NCBI GenBank assembly: GCA_018266475.1
Contig: JAFEAI010000244.1
Span: forward strand, 8,391-72,390
Length of the DNA: 64,000 nucleotides
Direction: 5' to 3'
Source of the DNA: Bacteroidota bacterium
Lineage (GTDB): Bacteria; Bacteroidota; Bacteroidia; Flavobacteriales_F; PHOS-HE28
Below, piece by piece: positions 2 to 49,079 of this stretch. Each line of letters opens with the position of its first letter. The first letter of the stretch is position 1. Made by a program: the position numbers and the translations under genes. Below the pieces are notes generated by a model. It did not search any database, was not told where the DNA came from, and saw only the letters and a program-made list of their open reading frames with translations.

Positions 2-3000
2 ATGCTAACACCACTCGGCAATCGTACAGGAAACATCTTCGACCTCCTTCTCCCGCACCTTCAATCCTCCCCTTCGGCCCCGGCGATCACGGCAGGTGGC
101 ACCACCCTCTCCCGGGCCCAGATTGCCGCACAGGTATCCTGCATGGCCGGGCACCTGCACAAGCACGGTTTGGCACCGGGCCAAACCGTGGCCATCTGTC
201 TGGACCGCTCCCCGGAGCTGATCATCGCCGTGCTGGGCATCGTACAGGCCGGGGCGGCATACGTGCCCATCGACCCCGCATATCCTGTTGAGCGGATCGC
301 CGGCATGCTTGAAGATGCCAAGCCCCCGGTGGTGATCACCAGCAAGGAGCACCGGCACCTCTTCACAGGCACGGCGGCCAAAGTGCTGCTGATCGAGGAT
401 ATCGACCTCCTCACCCTCCCCCCCCTCTCCCAGGGAGAGTGGGCGCCCTGTCCTGCGACACCCGACGACCTGCTGTACGTGCTGTTCACCAGCGGCAGCA
501 CCGGCCGCCCCAAGGGCGTGGCCATGCACCACGCACCGCTCACCAACCTGATCCAATGGCAGCTGCGCACCAGTGTGTGCGGCGAGGGTGATCGCACCCT
601 GCAGTTCGCACCCATCAGTTTTGACGTGAGCTTCCAGGAGATCTTCACCACCTTCGCACAAGGCGGCACGCTGGTGCTGATCACCGATGAGGACCGCCTG
701 AACAGCACCCAGCTCCTGCGGAAGATCATCGCCGAGAAGATCAACCGAATCATCGTTCCCTTCGTGGCGCTGCAGTACTTGGCCGAAGCCGTGGAGCGTA
801 CCGGCGAAGTGCCTTCCACATTGAAAGAGGTTTTCACCAGCGGTGAGCAATTGAAGATCACCCCCGCGATCATCAACCTCTTCAAGCAACTGCCCGGTGT
901 GCGCTTCTGCAACCAGTATGGCCCCACCGAAGGCCACGTGGTGAGCGAGCTTGAGCTAAAAGGCGATCCATCCACCTGGCCCGCGCTGCCCAACATCGGC
1001 AAGGCCATCGACAACGTGAAGCTGCTCGTGCTTGATGAGCAGATGAAGCCGGTGAAGAAGGGTGAGGAAGGCGAGCTCTACCTCGGTGGTGCGTGCGTGG
1101 CCAAAGGCTACATCGGCCGTGATGACCTGACGGCGGAACGCTTCCTGGCGGATCCGTTCGTAAAGCCACCCTTCGGCTCCGCTCAGGGCAGGCTTTACAA
1201 GACCGGCGACCGCGCGGCGGAGCTGCCCAACGGCGAGATCGACTACAAGGGCCGCATCGATGGCCAAGTGAAGGTGCGCGGCTACCGCATTGAGCTGGGC
1301 GAAGTGGAAGTAGCCATGGAGAAACACCGTGCGGTGGAACAAGCCGTGGCCAACGTGCGGGAGGACCGTCCCGGATTGAAACGGCTGATCGGCTACTATG
1401 TGGCGAAGCAGGACGTGAGCGTGAACGAGCTGCGCAAGCACCTCGCTTCCCTCCTACCCGACTACATGGTGCCCTCGGCCTTCGTGGCGGTGAAAGAACT
1501 ACCGCGCACGCCAAGCGGCAAGATCGATCGCAAGGCCCTGCCCGCCCCCGATGTAAAACGCCCTGAATTGGACGTTGCGTTCGCCGCACCGCAAAGCGCC
1601 GTGCAGAAGACGCTCGCCAACGTGTGGGCCGATCTGCTCGGCATCGACCGCGTGGGCATCGACGACAACTTCTTCGACCTCGGCGGCAACTCACTGCTGA
1701 GCATCCAATGCGTGGCGCAGCTGGAAGGCCATGGTCTGAAACTGCCGATCGTGAAACTGTACCAGCATCCGACGGTGCGCGCGTGCGCGGCGTTCTTGGA
1801 AGACGATACGAACGCCGTATCGCCCGCCGAGATGGCGAAAGCCCGCGTAGGGGCGAGACATGTCTCGCCCGAAAAGCGGGACATCGCCATCATCGGCATG
1901 AGCGGCCGCTTCCCCGGTGCTGCCAACGTAGAGGAGCTATGGCTGAACCTGCTGGCCAAGAAGAACAGCATCAGCCGCTGGACGGCCGACGAGATCGACC
2001 CGAGCGTGCCCGCCGAGCTGCGCAACGACCCCGATTACGTGAAGGCGCGCGGCGTGATCGCCGACGCCGACAAGTTCGACGCGGGCTTTTTCGGCGTGAA
2101 CCCCAAGGTGGCCGCACTGATGGATCCACAACAGCGGGTATTCCTCGAAACGGCCTGGGCCGCGCTGGAGGATGCCGCATACGATCCCGCGCAATTCGCT
2201 GGCCTCATTGGCGTGTACGCCGGCATGGGCAACAACACCTATTACACGCGGAACGTCATCGGCCATCCCGAGCTCATCGAGCAAGTGGGCGATTTCCAGG
2301 TGATGACGGCCAACGAAAAGGACTACATCGCCACTCGGCTTGCGTTCGAGTTCGACCTGCGCGGACCCGCGATCAGCATGAACACCGCGTGCAGCACCTC
2401 GCTGGTAGCGATCGCACAAGCCTTCCAGGCCCTGCGCGCCGGCGAATGCGACATGGCGCTGGCCGGCGGCATCGCCATCACCGCGCCGATCAACAGCGGC
2501 ATCGTGTACAACGAGGGCGGCATGTACAGCCCCGACGGCAGCACGCGCACCTTCGATGCCGAGGGAAAGGGCACCAGCTTCAGCGATGGCGTGGGCATCA
2601 TCGTATTGAAGAGGCTGGATGATGCGATCCGCGACAACGACCACATCTACGCCACGATCAAAGGCGCCGCGCTGAACAACGACGGCAGCGACAAGGCCAG
2701 CTTCACCGCGCCCAGCGTGCGCGGGCAGGCCGAAGTGATCGCTATGGCACAGGCCGATGCAGGGGTGTCGCCGGATCAGATCAGCTACGTGGAAGCGCAC
2801 GGCACGGCCACGCCGCTTGGTGATCCCATTGAGGTGGAGGCGCTGACGTTGGCGTTCCGATCAGAAAATCAGAAAATCAGAAAATCAGAAAATGGAAATG
2901 CGCCACATTGCACCATCGGCTCCATCAAGAGCAACATCGGCCACCTTACCGCCGCCGCCGGTGCCGCAGGGGTGATCAAGACCGCACTCGCATTGCAGCA

Positions 3001-6000
3001 GGAGCAGATCCCTGCGAGCATAGGCTATGAAAAGCCGAACCCCGCGATCGACTTCGCGAACTCGCCGTTCCGCGTGGCGCAGGACAACATCGCCTGGCCG
3101 CGCACCGACGCACCGCGCATGGCGGGGGTGAGCAGCTTCGGCGTGGGCGGCACCAACGCGCACGTGATCATGGCGGAGCCGCCGGTGCTGGCAGCATCCG
3201 GCGCATCGCGCAGCAAGCAACTGTTCTTCCTCAGCGCAAAGAGCAAGACCAGCTTGGATGCCATGACGGAGAATTTCCGCCAGTGGCTTGCAGCGCACCC
3301 TGATGCTTCCCTTGCCGACGCCGCATACACGCTGCAAGTGGGCCGCCGTCACTTCAAACACCGCCGGTTGATCGTAGGTGGAAGTCACGGTGAAGTGATC
3401 GACGCGATCGCGAACAAGGACGCGCAGCTGATCGGCACACGCGAACTGCACGAGGCCGCACCGGGCGTGGTGTTCATGTTCCCCGGCCAAGGCTCGCAGT
3501 ATGTACACATGGGCCGCGACCTCTGCGAAAGCGAGCCGGTCTTCAAGCAGCATTTCGATCACTGCTGCGAGCTCTTCGGCAAGGAACTCGGCACCGATCT
3601 GAAGGCCATCATCTTCCCGAAAGCGGGTGAAGAAGAAAAGGCCGCCGGGCAACTGAAGCAGACCATCTACACGCAGGCTTCGCTTTTCACCATGCACTAC
3701 AGCCTGGCGAAACTGTGGATGTACTGGGGCATCACGCCCGATGCGATGATGGGCCACAGCATCGGCGAGTTCGCTGCGGCTTGTCTCGCTGGTGTGTTCT
3801 CATTGGAAGATGCCGTGAAGCTGGTGGCCAACCGCGGCCGCATGATGCAGGAACTGCCCGGCGGCAGCATGCTCAGCGTGCGCGCGACGGAGGAGGATGT
3901 AGCGAAGAAACTTCCCGCTGGCTGCTCGATCGCCGCCAACAATGGCACGCAATTGTGCGTGGCCAGCGGTCCGCATGAGGCGATCGCGAAGCTGCAAGCC
4001 GAACTGGAGAAAGAGGGCATCACGTGCAAGCTGCTCGTGACCAGCCACGCCTTCCACAGCCCGATGATGGACGCCATGGTGGCGCCGTACAAGAAGGTGG
4101 TGGAAAGCGTGAAGCTGAATGCGCCGCGCATTCCGATCATCAGCACGGTGACCGCCCAATGGCTGAAGGACGACGAGGCCGTATCACCCAAATACTGGAG
4201 CGACCACCTGCGTGCCACCGTGCGATTTGCACAAGCGGTGAAGTTCGCGTGGGACGATGCGAACAGGGTAATGCTGGAGGTAGGCCCGCGCACCACGGCC
4301 ACCACGCTGGCCCGCCAGCAAAGCAGCGATGCAAAGAAGCAAGCGGCGGTCCCTTCATTGGGCGATTCCGCAGGCAACGGCAACGAACTGGCGCAACTGC
4401 TGAAAGCCGTGGGCGGCCTGTGGCAGAGCGGCGTGCTGATCGACTGGAAGAAATTCCATGAGCGCGAGGAGCGCAGGCGGATCAGCTTGCCGACCTATGC
4501 TTTTGAACGGGTACGGCATTGGGTGGAACCGGTGGCCTTGCAGGGCGTAAATAGACATGATGGACGCGAATTGCCGTCCATCGCGTCCATTCCAGCGCCG
4601 CACACAGATGCGGGCCTTTCTCCCAAGGACCAACTGATCGCGCAGATCAAACATCTTCTGGAGGAAAGCTCCGGCCTGGAACTCGCCGAAGCCAGCAACG
4701 AGGAGACTTTCCTGGAGATGGGCCTCGACTCGCTCTTCCTCACGCAGGTGGCCACCTCGCTGAGCAAAAAGTTCGGCGTGAAGATCAGCTTTCGGCAGTT
4801 GAACGAGGAGCTGCCGAACCTGGAGAAATTGGCGGAACACTTTTTAGCGAATGGGGTGGGATCAGTTGTCAGTTCACAGTTGTCGGTTGTCAGTGCCCGG
4901 ACAACGGACAACCAACAACCAACAACTGCCTCCGCCCTCGAAGACGCCCCTGAACTGAAGAAAGCCTTCGGTGCCCAGGCGCGCATCAGCAAGGAAAAGG
5001 CGGACGACTTCACGCCGCAACAGCGCGCCTGGTTCACCGACTTCGTGAAGCGCTACACGGCCAAGACCGCCAAGAGCAAGGCTTTCACGCAGGAGAACAG
5101 GAAACCGATGGCCGACCCGCGCGTGGTCACAGGCTTCAAGCCGCAAACCAAGGAACTCACTTACCAGGTGGTGGTGGACCGCAGCAAGGGCTGCCACCTG
5201 TGGGACATCGACGGCAACGAGTATGTGGACATCCTCAGCGGCTTCGGCTCGTCGATGTTCGGCTATATGCCCGACTTCATCAAGGAAGCGTGCCACGACC
5301 AGCTTGAAAAGGGCACGGAGATCGGGCCCATGCACCCGCTTGCAGCGGAAGTATCGAAGTTGCTGTGCGAACTCACCGGAGCCGAGCGCGCGGCCGTTTG
5401 CAACACCGGCAGCGAGGCCGTGCTGGGCGCCATGCGCATGGCCCGCACGGTGACGGGCCGCAGCCTGATCATCTCCTTCAGCGGCAGCTACCACGGCATC
5501 AACGACGAGGTGATCCTCCGCGGCAGCAAAAGCCACAAGAGCTACCCCGGCGCGCCCGGCATCATGCCCGAGGCCGTGCATAACATGCTGGTGCTGGACT
5601 ACGGCACGCCCGAAAGCCTGGAGATCATCAAGCAGCACTGCCACGAAGCCGCCGCCGTGCTGGTGGAACCCGTGCAGAGCCGCCGCATGGAGTTCCGCCC
5701 CGTTGATTTCCTGCGCGAGGTGCGCCGCATCACGAAAGAGCACGGCACCGCGTTGATCTTCGATGAAGTGATCACCGGCTTCCGCATGCACCCGAACGGC
5801 GCACAGGGCCTCTTCGGCATCAAAGCCGACATCGGCACCTACGGCAAGGTGATCGGCGGTGGCATGCCCATCGGCGCCATGATCGGCAGCCGCCCGTGGA
5901 TGGACGCGCTGGACGGCGGCGATTGGCGCTTCGGCGACGACAGCGTGCCCGAAGCCGGAGTGACCTACTTCGCAGGCACGTTCGTGCGCCATCCGTTGAC

Positions 6001-6547
6001 GCTCGCCGCCATGAAGGCCTCACTGCTGTACATGAAACGTGAAGGCCCCGCCTTGCAGGAACGGCTCAACGGGCTCACCCAAGGCATGGTGGAACGCGCC
6101 AATGCGCTCTTCGACCGCTACCAGCTTCCGTACCGCTGGGTACACTTCGGCAGCGCATTCAAGACCAAGTACGACGAAAGCGTCAACTACACCGAGTTCT
6201 TCTTCATGCTGATGCGCCTGCATGGCGTGCATGTGCTGGACTTCCCGCACTTCCTCACCACGGCGCACACGGAAGCGGACGTGGAATTCATCCTCACCGC
6301 CCTGGAGAACACCTGCAAGGAATTGCGCAACAGCGGCTTCATGCCGGAGCGCACCTATCCCCTGGCCGTGGTCAACAGCACCTTGAACGGGCACGCCTTC
6401 AAGCCAAGTGAACTGGTGGTAGAGGCCAGTGAACCGCCCGTGCCCGGCGCCCGCCTGGGCCGTACGCAGGAAGGCGAGCCCGGCTGGTTTGTTCCCGACC
6501 GTGAGCGGCCGGGAAAATTCATTCAACTCGTGGAGCACGGACAATGA
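2..6547 (+). CDS. Hybrid NRPS-PKS megasynthase, 5'-truncated at window start. Domain order: A (partial) - PCP - KS - AT - ACP - class III PLP aminotransferase (AMT). No KR/DH/ER seen.
   Basis: ORF has no start codon at the window edge. A-domain cores LYVLFTSGSTGRPKGV (A3), NQYGPTE (A5), YKTGDRAAELPNGEIDYKGRIDGQVKVRGYRIELGEVE (A7/A8). PCP FFDLGGNSL (~nt 1665-1697). KS DIAIIGMSGRFPG, DTACSTSL (Cys codon ~2391), HGTATPLGDP. AT GHSIGEF (~3751-3771). ACP LGLDSLFLTQV (~4722-4742). C-terminal ~530 aa aminotransferase-III-like (DGNEYVDILSGFGSSMFGY, YGKVIGGGMPIGA with PLP-Lys candidate ~5845). Confidence 0.9.
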   Translation: MLTPLGNRTGNIFDLLLPHLQSSPSAPAITAGGTTLSRAQIAAQVSCMAGHLHKHGLAPGQTVAICLDRSPELIIAVLGIVQAGAAYVPIDPAYPVERIAGMLEDAKPPVVITSKEHRHLFTGTAAKVLLIEDIDLLTLPPLSQGEWAPCPATPDDLLYVLFTSGSTGRPKGVAMHHAPLTNLIQWQLRTSVCGEGDRTLQFAPISFDVSFQEIFTTFAQGGTLVLITDEDRLNSTQLLRKIIAEKINRIIVPFVALQYLAEAVERTGEVPSTLKEVFTSGEQLKITPAIINLFKQLPGVRFCNQYGPTEGHVVSELELKGDPSTWPALPNIGKAIDNVKLLVLDEQMKPVKKGEEGELYLGGACVAKGYIGRDDLTAERFLADPFVKPPFGSAQGRLYKTGDRAAELPNGEIDYKGRIDGQVKVRGYRIELGEVEVAMEKHRAVEQAVANVREDRPGLKRLIGYYVAKQDVSVNELRKHLASLLPDYMVPSAFVAVKELPRTPSGKIDRKALPAPDVKRPELDVAFAAPQSAVQKTLANVWADLLGIDRVGIDDNFFDLGGNSLLSIQCVAQLEGHGLKLPIVKLYQHPTVRACAAFLEDDTNAVSPAEMAKARVGARHVSPEKRDIAIIGMSGRFPGAANVEELWLNLLAKKNSISRWTADEIDPSVPAELRNDPDYVKARGVIADADKFDAGFFGVNPKVAALMDPQQRVFLETAWAALEDAAYDPAQFAGLIGVYAGMGNNTYYTRNVIGHPELIEQVGDFQVMTANEKDYIATRLAFEFDLRGPAISMNTACSTSLVAIAQAFQALRAGECDMALAGGIAITAPINSGIVYNEGGMYSPDGSTRTFDAEGKGTSFSDGVGIIVLKRLDDAIRDNDHIYATIKGAALNNDGSDKASFTAPSVRGQAEVIAMAQADAGVSPDQISYVEAHGTATPLGDPIEVEALTLAFRSENQKIRKSENGNAPHCTIGSIKSNIGHLTAAAGAAGVIKTALALQQEQIPASIGYEKPNPAIDFANSPFRVAQDNIAWPRTDAPRMAGVSSFGVGGTNAHVIMAEPPVLAASGASRSKQLFFLSAKSKTSLDAMTENFRQWLAAHPDASLADAAYTLQVGRRHFKHRRLIVGGSHGEVIDAIANKDAQLIGTRELHEAAPGVVFMFPGQGSQYVHMGRDLCESEPVFKQHFDHCCELFGKELGTDLKAIIFPKAGEEEKAAGQLKQTIYTQASLFTMHYSLAKLWMYWGITPDAMMGHSIGEFAAACLAGVFSLEDAVKLVANRGRMMQELPGGSMLSVRATEEDVAKKLPAGCSIAANNGTQLCVASGPHEAIAKLQAELEKEGITCKLLVTSHAFHSPMMDAMVAPYKKVVESVKLNAPRIPIISTVTAQWLKDDEAVSPKYWSDHLRATVRFAQAVKFAWDDANRVMLEVGPRTTATTLARQQSSDAKKQAAVPSLGDSAGNGNELAQLLKAVGGLWQSGVLIDWKKFHEREERRRISLPTYAFERVRHWVEPVALQGVNRHDGRELPSIASIPAPHTDAGLSPKDQLIAQIKHLLEESSGLELAEASNEETFLEMGLDSLFLTQVATSLSKKFGVKISFRQLNEELPNLEKLAEHFLANGVGSVVSSQLSVVSARTTDNQQPTTASALEDAPELKKAFGAQARISKEKADDFTPQQRAWFTDFVKRYTAKTAKSKAFTQENRKPMADPRVVTGFKPQTKELTYQVVVDRSKGCHLWDIDGNEYVDILSGFGSSMFGYMPDFIKEACHDQLEKGTEIGPMHPLAAEVSKLLCELTGAERAAVCNTGSEAVLGAMRMARTVTGRSLIISFSGSYHGINDEVILRGSKSHKSYPGAPGIMPEAVHNMLVLDYGTPESLEIIKQHCHEAAAVLVEPVQSRRMEFRPVDFLREVRRITKEHGTALIFDEVITGFRMHPNGAQGLFGIKADIGTYGKVIGGGMPIGAMIGSRPWMDALDGGDWRFGDDSVPEAGVTYFAGTFVRHPLTLAAMKASLLYMKREGPALQERLNGLTQGMVERANALFDRYQLPYRWVHFGSAFKTKYDESVNYTEFFFMLMRLHGVHVLDFPHFLTTAHTEADVEFILTALENTCKELRNSGFMPERTYPLAVVNSTLNGHAFKPSELVVEASEPPVPGARLGRTQEGEPGWFVPDRERPGKFIQLVEHGQ
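4862..4928. repeat. In-frame palindromic heptamer-repeat block (AGTTGTC/GGTTGTC units then reverse complement GACAACGGACAACCAACAACCAACAACTG) inside the NRPS-PKS ACP-AMT linker; encodes SQLSVVSARTTDNQQPTT.
   Basis: Direct reading: cagttgtcagttcacagttgtcggttgtcagtgcccggacaacggacaaccaacaaccaacaactg. Same heptamer family as the arrays at 32796-32892 and 35461-35480. Confidence 0.7.
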
Positions 6548-6584: not shown

Positions 6585-9500
6585 ATGGAAAAGTTCATCC
6601 CGGAAACCACCGCCGTGCCTGTTGCCCATGATCCGTTCAGCGGCCCCGCCATCCAGCGGACCATCCCCACCACGGAATCGCAGATGGAGGTGTTTGCCGC
6701 CTCGGAGATGGGCAACGAGGCCAATTGCGCATACGTGGAAAGCATTTCGCTGGTGCTCACGGGCAAGCTGGTACAACCGGCCCTGGAAACGGCGCTTCAG
6801 GACCTGACCGCGCGCCACGAAAGCCTGCGCAGCACCATCAGTCCCAACGGCATGCGCATGGTGGTGCTCGAACGGATGACCCTCCCCACCCCGTTCGAAG
6901 ACCTCTCCGGCATTGATGAACCGGCCCGGCGCTCGCGCATGGAGCAGCTTGCCGAAGAGGACATGCGCCGGCCTTTCGACCTGGTGAGCGGCCCATTGTT
7001 CAGGGTATCCCTCACCAAGATCGCACCCGACCGGCACGTGCTGCGCCTGAGCGGCCACCACGCCGTGCTGGACGGGTGGAGCCTCGGCATCCTGATGGCC
7101 GAGATCAGCGCCCTCTACAATGCGCGCTTGGCCGGCACCGCACCGGCCCTTCCTGCGGCGGATCCGTTCAGCCGCTACGTGCGGGAAACCATTGCGTTTT
7201 CCAAGAGCAGTGCGCAGGCCGCCGTAGAGCAATACTGGACCGGACTGTACAGGGATTCCGTGCCGCGCCTGGACCTGCCCACGGACCGGCCGCGGCCGGT
7301 GCCCAAAACCTTCAACGGCCACCGCCTGGACCTTGCGATGGACCGGGAACTTGTGCGCGGCCTGAGATCCGTGGCCACGCGCAACGGCGCAAGCTTCGTC
7401 ACCACCCTGCTTTGCGCATTCGAACTGCTGCTGCACAAGCTCACCGGCCAGCACGAAATTGTGACCGGGCTGCCTGCGGCAGGCCAAAGCGACCTGGGCA
7501 TGAAGCACCTGGTGGGGCACTGTGTAAACCTGCTCGCCCTGCGCAGCCGGATCGATGACGAAGAATCCTTCGACCAATACCTGAAGCAGCGCCGCACCGA
7601 GGTGCTCGATGCCTTCGACCACCAGAAGTACACCTTCGGGACGCTGCTGCAAAAACTGAAGGTGCCGCGGGAGCCGGGCCGCATTCCACTGGTGCCCGCC
7701 GTGTTCAACATCGACATGAACATGGACGACGGGGTGTCCTTCACCGGGCTGGCACACCGCTTCGTGAGCAACCCCAGGCACTACGAAAACTTCGAGCTTT
7801 TCCTGAACGCCACCGGGCAGGGCGACGACCTGGTGCTGGAATGGAGCTATAACACGGACCTCTTCGACAAAGCGACCATCCGCAGTTGGATGGACCAGCT
7901 ATCCACCCTGGTGCGGCGGATCGGCGGCAACAGCGCCCTGCCGATCGGCGCCCTGTTGGGCGAGGAAGAACCTTCCGCCCATAAAATGCCTTTGCCCGAA
8001 TGGCACGGCACCGCCACGGACATCCCGCGCGGAACCAGCATCGGCGCATTGTTCGACGAAGTGGCCGCCGCACACCTCGCAAGCCCCGCGCTAGTAGCAC
8101 CGGACGGCGAATGGAGCTACGCGAAATTGCACGACCGTACACTGTCCATGGCATCGGCACTGCTGGCGGCAGGCGTAAAACCCGGCGACCCGGTGGGCCT
8201 GTGCACCGACCGTTGCGCGGACATGGTTGCGGCCATGCTTGCCATCCTGCGCTGCGGTGCCGCCTTTGTGCCCTTCGACCCCGCCTACCCCGCCGACCGC
8301 CTGGAGTACATGTTGCAGGACACGGGCATCCGCGTGCTGATCACGCAACGGCACCTTTCGGCGGCCTTGCCCAGGCATGATGCACGCACCTTGTTCGTGG
8401 AAGACCTGCACGGTGCCGAAGCCCCGCAGCCCGCCGCCGGCGGCCCTGATTCACCGGCGTACATCATGTACACCTCCGGTTCCACGGGCAAGCCCAAGGG
8501 CGTGGTGGTGCCGCACCGCGCCGTGATCCGCCTGGTGCGCAACCAGAACTTCCTGCCCTTCGGACCCGACCTCACCTTTCTGCAACTTTCCAATATCTCC
8601 TTTGACGCCTCCACACTGGAGCTATGGGGAGCGCTCCTGAACGGGGCACGGCTTGTGCTGCAACCCCAGCAGAAGCCAACCCTGCAGGAGGTCATCGACA
8701 CCATCCACAAGCACCGTGTGACCACGGTATGGTTCACCGCGGGCCTGTTCAACCTGATGGTGGACGAGCACCTGGAACAATTGCACGGCCTCAGGCACAT
8801 CCTGGCCGGCGGCGATGCGCTCAGCGTGCCCCACGTAAAGCGTGCCCTGCGCACCTTGGGGCCAGGCATACTGATCAACGGGTACGGCCCCACAGAGAAC
8901 ACCACCTTCACCTGCTGCCATGCCATAAATGATTTGCAGGCCCTGCAAACCCGCGTGCCCATCGGCAAACCCATCGCGAACACCACGGCCTACATCCTGG
9001 GCCCCGACATGCAGCCGGTGGCCATAGGGGAGAAAGGCGAACTGTACACCGGTGGCGAAGGCGTTGCCCTGGGGTACTGGCAGCAGCCGGAACTGACCGC
9101 CGCGCAATTCATTCCGGACCCGTTCAGCAAGCATCCGAACGCCAAGCTCTACCGCACGGGCGACCAGGTGCGGTGGCTGCCCGACGGCACCATCGACTTC
9201 CTGGGCCGCGGCGACGGCCAGGTGAAGGTGCGCGGATTCCGCGTGGAGCTCGGCGAGATCGAGAACGCCATCAGCGCGGTGGCTGGCGTGAAGGACCGCG
9301 TGGTGGTTGCGCGCAACGACGGGCCCGGGGAAAAACAACTGGCGGCCTACTTGGTGCCGGCACAGCATGCGGGCGACGGTGACGCCCAGGAAGCACTGAT
9401 CAAGCAAGTGCGCGACCACCTGCGCCAAACCTTGCCGGACCACATGGTGCCTTCGGCCTTCGTGATCCTTGCCGAGCTGCCGCTTACCGCAAACGGAAAG

Positions 9501-19767: not shown

Positions 19768-19846
19768 ACAGGGGTGCTGCGCCATCGGGGGGCAGGGCAG
19801 ACGCATCAAAAACCAAGCGATCAAAACATCGGCGTGAAAATCAAGG

Positions 19847-19955
19847 ATTTGAAGTTGGCCCTTCGGCTCCGCTCAGGGCAGTTCATGTTTATCATCCAGT
19901 CACTAACGAAACATTGCCCTGCGAAGCCGCTCCTCGGCCTCGCCCGAAGGGCCAA
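19847..19955. repeat. Intergenic inverted-repeat element: outer 10-bp IR GGCCCTTCGG / CCGAAGGGCC, inner CAGGGCA / TGCCCTG, AT-rich 45-nt loop, T6 run 19 nt downstream (19974-19979). Contains the 23-mer also found in the NRPS CDS.
   Basis: Direct reading of both arms. Lies in the 340-bp gap between the ABC exporter and the next gene. Confidence 0.45.
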
Positions 19956-20108
19956 CCAAGTACAGCATCGTGTTTTTTCAAGCATGGTGGGCATTCCTGT
20001 CCGTGATGCTATACTGGCTTGGCCAATTTGATGCGTTTGCCCTGCATCCGAGGTACAACCAATCGGCAAGTCGGCTTATGTTTAGGACCTTCCCCCAGCA
20101 CCGTATCC

Positions 20109-24295: not shown

Positions 24296-24460
24296 TTGCG
24301 AGTGTGGGAGTCGGGAGTGCGGGGAGTCGGCAGTCGGGAGCTGGGAGTTGGAAGTCGGCAGTCCGGCAGTCCGGCAGTCTGCAGTCGGCAGTCGGCAGTC
24401 GGCAGTCGGCAGTCGGCAGTCCGGGGAGTCGGCAGTCCGGGAGTCGAACTCACGACTCAA
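24296..24460. repeat. ~18 tandem copies of heptamer GGCAGTC/GGGAGTC (GGNNGTC family), ending in hairpin GAGTCG-aactca-CGACTC (24443-24460).
   Basis: Read directly in the tgt-to-lptF/G intergenic region; produces the artefactual SRQSAVG / PTADCRL repeat ORFs on both strands. Confidence 0.8.
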
Positions 24461-32795: not shown

Positions 32796-32892
32796 TGTTG
32801 GTTGTCAGTTGTCGGTTGTCGGTTGTCGGTTGTTGGTTGTTGGTTGTCAGTTGTTGGTTGTCAGTTGTTGGTTGTCAGTTGTCGGTTGTTGG
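32796..32892. repeat. 13 tandem heptamers GTTGTCA/GTTGTCG/GTTGTTG in the convergent intergenic region; last units encode the DUF488 C-terminus (PPTTDN).
   Basis: Direct reading: gttgtcagttgtcggttgtcggttgtcggttgttggttgttggttgtcagttgttggttgtcagttgttggttgtcagttgtcggttgttggggg. Confidence 0.8.
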
Positions 32893-48939: not shown

Positions 48940-49079
48940 TATTGAGTCGGCACAAAATGATTGACGATTCGACCTTGTGAAATTTCCTTGATGATCTGGC
49001 GAGGGGCTTCGGCTCCGCTCAGCCCAGTGTATCTGATTACTTTGCAGACAACCGTCAACTATTCAAGGCCGACTCAATA
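48940..49079. repeat. Intergenic IR element: 12-bp IR TATTGAGTCGGC / GCCGACTCAATA flanking a 16-nt core CTTCGGCTCCGCTCAG (49007-49022) shared with 1169-1191 and 19849-19871. Followed by GNRA hairpin ATGCGCC-gcaa-GGCGCAT (49199-49216).
   Basis: Direct reading; in the 393-bp gap upstream of the FkbM gene. Confidence 0.4.

Follow-up and report, generated by a model that had tools for sequence, protein, structure and literature searches.

The 64,000-nucleotide stretch of DNA analyzed here (the window; positions 8,391 to 72,390 of contig JAFEAI010000244.1, assembly GCA_018266475.1, from a Bacteroidota bacterium) carries a nonribosomal peptide synthetase (NRPS) gene, an ATP-binding cassette (ABC) transporter gene, and a glycosyltransferase/amidotransferase-like gene. 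A short hairpin lies within the first of these and 3' of each of the other two. The three hairpins belong to a dispersed hairpin-forming family whose loop is conserved across phyla and whose insertions are recent and lineage-specific. A 23-nt word common to two of them is very probably the core of a very small (approximately 25- to 35-nt) hairpin-forming dispersed repeat, with three copies in the window and a phylum-spanning family, which we infer to be mobile.

Three hairpins with a common loop

The 23-mer CCCTTCGGCTCCGCTCAGGGCAG occurs exactly twice in the window, both times on the + strand, at 1169-1191 within the NRPS open reading frame (ORF) and at 19859-19881 in intergenic DNA. It is the longest nontandem repeat of the window, which has a G+C content of 62.3%. 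An original prediction, made from the letters of the window, had noted this pair in the same orientation and placed the first copy correctly, but it set the second, intergenic copy at 19849-19871. The 16-nt core of the word, CTTCGGCTCCGCTCAG, is found again at 49007-49022, just where the prediction had it, giving three matches to the core in the window versus 0.04 expected. None of 100 dinucleotide shuffles of the window contained a 23-mer match, which bears out the view that the repeat is beyond chance.

All three copies have the 12-nt loop TCGGCTCCGCTC in common and differ in their stems, which are CCCT/AGGG with an AAGCC/GGCTT extension in the NRPS gene, GCCCT/AGGGC at 19.86 kb, and GGGCT/AGCCC at 49.0 kb. 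The last of these departs from the other two by two compensated C-G to G-C swaps. Looser pattern searches of the window detected no copies besides these three, and a scan of the window for tRNA and tmRNA returned nothing. Searches of the window and of both intergenic loci against Rfam, at gathering and at permissive thresholds, gave no matches, and the window has no match to the Flavo-1 RNA.

An in-frame copy in an NRPS adenylation domain

The NRPS hairpin occupies positions 1161 to 1195 of the + strand (AAGCC-A-CCCT[TCGGCTCCGCTC]AGGG-CA-GGCTT) within an ORF, 2 to 6547, that is open over 2,181 codons. It encodes (V)KPPFGSAQGRL, and the 23-mer is read in frame as P-F-G-S-A-Q-G-R. That this copy encodes PFGSAQG had been recognized; its position between motifs A7 and A8 of the adenylation (A) domain, however, was not borne out, since alignment to solved adenylation domains puts the 23-mer between A6 (GELYLGGACVAKGY) and A7 (YKTGD), in the A6-A7 loop. 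The motif numbering is that in general use for A domains.

The element is missing from all 12 orthologous A domains compared (78 to 95% identical; labeled by their sources as Flavobacteriales metagenome-assembled genomes [MAGs]). These are six residues shorter and read DPF-[E/I/T]-xGG-R(L/M)Y, versus DPF-VKPPFGSAQG-RLY in the window. At the nucleotide level, in a syntenic relative (L203) that is 80.6% identical over 6.3 kb, the 18 nt GAGGGTGGTGGACGATTG stand in place of the window's 36 nt GTAAAGCCACCCTTCGGCTCCGCTCAGGGCAGGCTT, and the flanks of this tract are identical on both sides. The tail of the tract, GGC AGG CTT, re-encodes the ancestral Gly-Arg-Leu using other codons, and the tract forms an extended hairpin (-6.7 kcal/mol as DNA for the segment 1161-1195). 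The NRPS copy also carries the family tail GGCAGGCTT, which the 19.86-kb copy lacks. Judged from these alignments, the NRPS copy is recent and lineage-specific; 36 nt have replaced 18 nt, in frame, within a variable surface loop, and the finding dates a small structural change of an NRPS adenylation domain to one lineage.

In L203 itself, the NRPS/polyketide synthase genes (L203:9320-16213) are called as many short fragments, probably as a result of frameshift errors of long-read assembly rather than of pseudogene formation.

Two intergenic copies that vary among strains

The 19.86-kb copy lies 92 nt 3' of the stop codon of the + strand ABC transporter gene. Its hairpin (19858 to 19881, + strand; loop at 19863-19874) ends in a 3' tail, AG, and forms the left part of a 103-nt doublet (19854 to 19956, + strand) that resembles a REPIN, an inverted pair of repetitive extragenic palindromic (REP) sequences, and has perfect 13-nt arms at 19854-19866 and 19944-19956. 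The right half of the doublet is a degenerate inverted copy, TGCCCTG...CCGAAGGGCCAAC, at 19915-19956. The doublet has a fold of -30.3 kcal/mol (z = -7.25, DNA), and the region 19850-19960 has a z of -5.4 as RNA. An outer 19-nt inverted repeat surrounds the doublet (19792 to 20045; arms 19792-19810 and 20027-20045, 95% complementary) and is confined to the species of the window, being present in L205 and absent from the 83 to 87% relatives L206-L209.

The 19.86-kb element is also found in a genome with a 98%-identical ABC protein. A strain whose ABC protein is identical has the left hairpin in common with the window and diverges beyond it, and in strain L122 the right arm of the doublet is still GCCCTGAGCGTAGCCG. 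A further 98% relative lacks the element and is followed downstream by another gene, and the hairpin is entirely missing at this site from the 83 to 87% relatives. One Logan short-read contig (L121) ends inside the hairpin, at window position 19874. In one of the 87% relatives (L206:3316-4300; GCA_023957375.1, ACE_NR_BACT18), the orthologous site has approximately 800 extra nt with an apparent remnant of an IS200/RAYT-like gene (RAYT, REP-associated tyrosine transposase; translation ...YFKLHYHIVFGTRNR...), flanked by different REP-like hairpins, GCTGCGACACCCTTCGGGGTCG and inverted copies of it. The L206 site thus holds other repeats, so that one intergenic spot has been colonized by different repeat systems.

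The 49.0-kb copy (49004 to 49025, + strand; loop at 49009-49020) lies 118 nt 3' of the stop codon of the + strand glycosyltransferase/amidotransferase-like gene. It forms the apex of an imperfect palindrome of 140 nt (48940 to 49079) with 30-nt arms that are 77% complementary and a center at approximately 49009.5; the fold of this palindrome has a z of -3.6 as RNA and -2.3 as DNA. Two assemblies agree with the window at this site. In strain L213, a 56-nt insertion lies between TCGGCTCC and GCTC, i.e., within the hairpin loop; the inserted DNA contains an inverted family member, CCTGCTGAGCGGAACCGAAGCAGG, and the downstream genes of this strain differ. Relatives at 59% have no element here. Three Logan contigs (L212, L214, and L215) end exactly at ...GGGGCTTCGGCTCC of the 49.0-kb copy, and the hairpin element appears to break assemblies. 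As these sequence comparisons indicate, both intergenic copies are lineage-specific and strain-variable. The larger palindromes around the two copies are unrepeated anywhere in the loci compared, so that no family of miniature inverted-repeat transposable elements was detected in them.

A hairpin family with a conserved loop and a covarying stem

An exact scan for the 16-mer, with one genome per species, returned at least 120 loci containing 139 instances. The matches listed fall into about 15 phyla and include cultured isolates. They come from Acidobacteriota, Bacteroidota, Chloroflexota, Cyanobacteriota, Spirochaetota, Nitrospirota, Pseudomonadota, and Verrucomicrobiota, as well as Myxococcota, Gemmatimonadota, Planctomycetota, Bacillota, Zixibacteria, Methylomirabilota, Marinamargulisbacteria, and others. 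The 16-mer occurs also in genomes of 32 to 40% GC, many of the Bacteroidota loci have 32 to 45% GC, and the exact 23-mer is present in at least 17 unrelated loci.

Members of the family consist of the 12-nt loop TCGGCTCCGCTC (GAGCGGAGCCGA on the opposite strand) on a stem of 4 to 6 bp that is variable yet complementary, in a unit of 25 to 35 nt. At least two further complementary pairs beyond the 16-mer were formed in 98 of the 139 instances, whereas shifted controls gave 1 to 20 such cases in 139. Of 133 distinct sequences, 86 to 87% form the two flanking pairs, with four to five pair types that include C-G, G-C, A-U, and U-A. The covariation score of the stem was 0.42, compared with 0.118 ± 0.013; none of 500 shuffles reached it, and it was far above that of slid controls. 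Flank profiles and alignment revealed no conserved column on the 5' side; what is conserved is the loop together with a tail on the 3' side (CAGGC or ACCG). In GC-rich genomes this tail is usually GGCAGGC, and in AT-rich ones it is nnACCG. Approximately 280 chance matches to the 16-mer are expected over the whole 596-Gb collection, so some matches must be noise; most are not, because their flanks are complementary.

Tandem arrays of the hairpin were found at L053:3190-3380 (a Marinicella MAG), L096:3950-4050, L013:2480-2530, and L047:4140-4210, with periods of 34, 64, 25, and 51 nt, respectively. A search of 26 hairpin-rich loci against Rfam gave no match on the hairpins themselves. By inspection, we rejected a hammerhead core (CUGANGA...GAAA), a tRNA T-arm, and a UUCG tetraloop as identities for the loop. 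PLSDB plasmids yielded just four weak matches. On the Trichlorobacter lovleyi plasmid pIAE1, a 25/27-nt near-copy (L210:2501-2527) lies in the 3' part of an annotated transposase gene and adjoins qacEdelta1-sul1 of a class 1 integron.

Sites occupied in other genomes

Among the matches listed, 36% of the 139 instances fall within 200 or more codons free of stops, versus 80% of random positions. For intergenic copies in genomes below 50% GC, 18 lie between convergent and 2 between divergent genes, and their orientation relative to the adjacent transcript is without bias (24 versus 23). Such a distribution agrees with purging of a DNA-level element from promoters and not with a strand-specific RNA.

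Copies are also present inside a structured RNA and, commonly, inside genes. In a Chryseobacterium (L044), a strong match to the Flavo-1 RNA (76.9 bits) has an element with a 3-bp stem inserted at its apical loop. A HemN-like radical S-adenosylmethionine enzyme has a 10-residue in-frame insert, VGALSGAEVP, relative to a solved homologue. Further intragenic copies were found in TcdB-like, AAA_28, DNA methylase (two paralogues), GT2, and CCG/Fer4 proteins, and LSGAEG is the commonest intragenic reading.

Association with small GIY-YIG genes

We clustered, all against all, the ORFs lying within 2.5 kb of the 139 hairpin copies. Among the matches listed, the sole recurrent small protein family was a GIY-YIG family of approximately 100 amino acids, present at 6 of 120 loci. 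All six neighboring proteins match PF01541, and in every case no more than 150 nt separates their genes from hairpins on one side or both. A doublet of approximately 130 nt is present as direct repeats on either side of the GIY-YIG gene in L161 and L178, and in L032 and L123 the exact 23-mer adjoins such a gene. NCBIfam has no specific model for these ORFs.

As a reciprocal test, 80 metagenome loci were gathered with the GIY-YIG proteins as the query. These contained 54 strict matches to the loop, versus approximately 0.4 expected, and 52 of the 54 were within 400 nt of the gene. With a wider loop class, GAG[CT]-N3-5-[CTG]CGA, hairpins occurred at 1.28 per kb near the gene compared with 0.086 per kb farther off. 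Hairpins of this class were present in 34 of the 80 loci, most commonly with the loops GAGCTTGTCGA and GAGCCTGTCGA. The hairpins and this gene family are statistically associated. In two loci (L172 and L176), a GIY-YIG cassette with hairpins lies between genes of apparent restriction-modification or ATPase operons.

Other short repeats in the window

Heptamer tandem repeats, (GCAGTCG)n, lie at approximately 24381 (24320-24440), and the units GTTGTCG/GTTGTTG/GTTGTCA lie at approximately 32800-32890 (32796-32890). A stretch of 15 to 20 nt related to the heptamer repeats is present in both orientations at 4877-4926 of the NRPS ORF, which also contains approximately 3.25 tandem repeats of the octamer ATCAGAAA at 2860-2885.

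Discussion

The copies at 1169 and 19859 are identical because both are near-consensus members of one family. Their identity does not imply any interaction of the two loci, and the 23-mer is not specific to them, the same word being present in unrelated places. Of the readings that the prediction had offered, it is the dispersed repeat tolerated in frame that holds, as the window copies belong to a cross-phylum hairpin family and the NRPS copy is in frame and absent from the orthologues. An element of this kind would be mobile, now or recently, and would land preferentially at gene 3' ends and at the tips of existing hairpins; in coding DNA, it would survive only if in frame within a tolerant loop.

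The association with GIY-YIG genes raises the question of how such an element would spread. By analogy with the REP/REPIN-RAYT systems, propagation may occur in trans through small single-domain GIY-YIG nucleases whose genes are flanked by hairpin doublets, a proposal to which we give not quite an even chance. Plausibly, the extruded hairpin would be cut in a structure-specific manner and then copied in the course of repair. More tentatively still, the hairpins and the genes for these proteins of approximately 100 amino acids might together make up an undescribed pan-bacterial repeat/nuclease system, a counterpart of REP-RAYT built on another nuclease fold and recognizing an 11- to 12-nt loop (GAGC-N3-4-YCGA). 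In that system, hairpins of 25 to 35 nt would spread to gene ends, hairpin tips, and in-frame protein loops.

A number of observations weigh against a mobile element propagated by these proteins. No target-site duplication and no clean pair of empty and filled sites was found, and in the NRPS gene sequence was replaced rather than simply inserted. Taken singly, the window hairpins are thermodynamically ordinary, with z of about -1 to 0 as DNA or RNA, and up to approximately 30% of the 16-mer matches (those whose stem extends by less than 2 bp) may have arisen by chance or have decayed. As for the nuclease, 46 of the 80 GIY-YIG loci are without a hairpin of the searched classes, and tblastn of the six GIY-YIG proteins against the 64-kb window found nothing. 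Similarity among the GIY-YIG proteins does not clearly track the loop type (1.5 points of identity; permutation p = 0.08). Because the element prefers intergenic DNA, the enrichment of hairpins near a small gene is confounded in part, and the nuclease gene could target hairpin arrays instead of moving them.

Other origins of the 23-nt identity were weighed against a dispersed mobile repeat. The original prediction had offered, as one possibility, a minus-strand transcript of the intergenic locus near 19.86 kb that would be antisense to 23 nt of the NRPS mRNA; such a small RNA, from there or from 49.0 kb, might control the NRPS. The complementarity over 23 nt is perfect, and the region 19850-19960 folds very stably. 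However, an identity that reflects the family consensus needs no special explanation, because the same 23-mer lies in so many unrelated loci, and with the NRPS segment missing from 12 of 12 orthologues, any regulation would be a very recent accident. No Rfam match was obtained, the family has no orientation bias, and no promoter-like site or terminator was found on the minus strand, in a scan that excludes Bacteroidota-type promoters and was complemented by a separate, likewise empty, search for TAnnTTTG. Nothing speaks for the antisense idea beyond complementarity; it is not supported, and we consider it extremely unlikely. A recombination or gene-conversion footprint had also been put forward. 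Conversion of one window locus by the other, or ectopic exchange between them, with one copy templating the other, would account for 23 nt of exact identity in the same orientation. The proposal stands in part, though in another sense than the original one: the intergenic copies coincide with breakpoints of strain-level rearrangements and with indels. Templating between the window copies is nevertheless very unlikely: the identity ends at the element and the flanks differ, whereas those of the NRPS copy (CCACC... and ...GGCAGGCTT) are the same as in Acidobacteria copies such as L001, L003, and L108 and are lacking at 19.86 kb, and any family member in the genome could have been the donor. Another alternative, chance in a GC-rich genome, gains some ground from the 62% G+C of the window, but a word that the shuffles never reproduced, and that has complementary flanks in genomes of 32 to 40% GC as well, has next to no prospect of being a compositional artifact. 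The prediction had named a frequent GC-rich word as the finding that would count against it; the word is frequent, although as a repeat element and not through composition.

Two further explanations accept the family and dispute what it is. The hairpin might be a fixed signal of benefit to the host, such as a terminator, an mRNA-stabilizing hairpin, or a site for a host factor, kept by selection or convergent. The bias toward gene 3' ends (18 convergent versus 2 divergent), the stem covariation, which implies that the hairpin is maintained, and the conservation of the loop across phyla would all agree with this. A host signal would not be expected within the coding sequences of many unrelated enzymes, to come and go among close strains, to nest inside the loop of another copy, to form tandem and inverted clusters, to lack a following T-run and a strand bias, or to gather around one selfish-looking nuclease gene family, and we judge this reading quite unlikely. 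Alternatively, solo hairpins and doublets could be scars left by insertion of a GIY-YIG cassette and deletion between its flanking repeats. The gene in L161 and L178 does lie between direct doublet repeats, so that deletion would leave one doublet, and none of the window copies has a GIY-YIG gene nearby. Yet a 500-nt cassette in the NRPS A domain would inactivate the enzyme until its precise in-frame loss, the commonest form among the matches listed is a single hairpin of approximately 25 nt and not a doublet, and the nested insertion in L213 is 56 nt long and free of genes. Scars are thus unlikely, though the least so of these alternatives, and a small dispersed element that moves, or has recently moved, is the reading we retain.

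For the window, the analysis removes a tempting but unsupported regulatory story. Among the matches listed, an identical 12-nt loop is kept in genomes from 32% to 75% GC and in about 15 phyla. If the element is mobile and driven by a nuclease, it matters for bacterial repeats, for the evolution of indels in proteins, and for metagenome assembly. The repeat/nuclease system, if true, would give rise on a wide scale to small indels, both in the proteins and in the structured RNAs of bacteria. The work also supplies a concrete candidate substrate for these GIY-YIG proteins. The literature searched, whose coverage is incomplete, gave no description of the loop sequence or of a GIY-YIG/hairpin association, and an earlier one may exist.

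Comparison with known repeat systems

Among known repeats, REP sequences, the bacterial interspersed mosaic elements that they form, and REPINs are mobilized by RAYT (TnpA-REP), a Y1 transposase of the HUH fold (PMC3116915, PMC2817692, PMC3733652), and REP palindromes bear a conserved GTAG or CGTC tetranucleotide at one end (PMC3733652). The hairpin family shares with REP sequences and REPINs short, GC-rich, dispersed hairpins that often form inverted doublets and lie mostly at gene 3' ends, and with REP-RAYT a link to a single small nuclease gene with the repeats on its own flanks. It comprises imperfect palindromes within the 20 to 40 nt typical of REP sequences, in many dispersed copies and inverted doublets. 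The associated protein, however, has the GIY-YIG and not the HUH fold, and no cluster of Y1 transposases was present among the ORFs within 2.5 kb of the 139 copies in the matches listed. Whereas REP sequences conserve the stem and a GTAG/CGTC tag, are lineage-specific, and are extragenic, the family described here conserves the loop, has no such tag, and recurs across many phyla; it is depleted from ORFs, yet a sizable minority of its copies lies in frame inside genes.

GIY-YIG nucleases include homing endonucleases (I-TevI and Seg proteins) and structure-specific enzymes of the Slx1/UPF0213 type. The ORFs found near the hairpins have in common with these the PF01541 catalytic domain and a selfish, multicopy, patchy distribution. 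They differ in that the predicted nucleases, of approximately 100 amino acids, consist of the domain alone, have no DNA-binding module, and lie outside introns. In relation to Flavo-1 (RF01705), the L044 element is an insertion in the apical loop and is not part of the Rfam consensus. Intrinsic terminators have a loop of 3 to 8 nt and a T-run, whereas the loop here is 12 nt long; no terminator-like site was found at either intergenic locus, and no T-run follows the hairpin.

Rickettsia palindromic elements, from work attributed to Ogata and colleagues in 2000, are reportedly 100 to 150 bp long and restricted to Rickettsia. Like the family described here, they are palindromic selfish repeats whose in-frame insertions into genes are tolerated in surface loops, but their length and single genus set them apart from an element of 25 to 35 nt found in about 15 phyla. 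Other small mobile sequences are also known from within genes (PMC2229807).

The element is similar in size to the cyanobacterial small dispersed repeats (SDRs). In work attributed to Elhai and colleagues in 2008, SDR1 to SDR8 are said to be 21 to 27 nt long, capable of forming hairpins, nested, and present inside genes and structured RNAs. Compared by description and not by sequence, SDRs and the present family agree in size, hairpins, nesting, and copies in genes and structured RNAs. We know of no protein associated with SDRs and of no activity that mobilizes them. PMC5861425 reports SDRs from Nostocaceae only, and both it and PMC3116915 cite the SDR work of Elhai et al. Again by description, SDRs are known from Nostocaceae and have no known associated protein, whereas the hairpin family is cross-phylum and associated with GIY-YIG genes; cyanobacterial loci account for 3 of the 120 16-mer loci among the matches listed (L006, L042, and L050). 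The closest analogues of the element are the REP/REPIN-RAYT systems, the Rickettsia palindromic elements, and the cyanobacterial SDRs.

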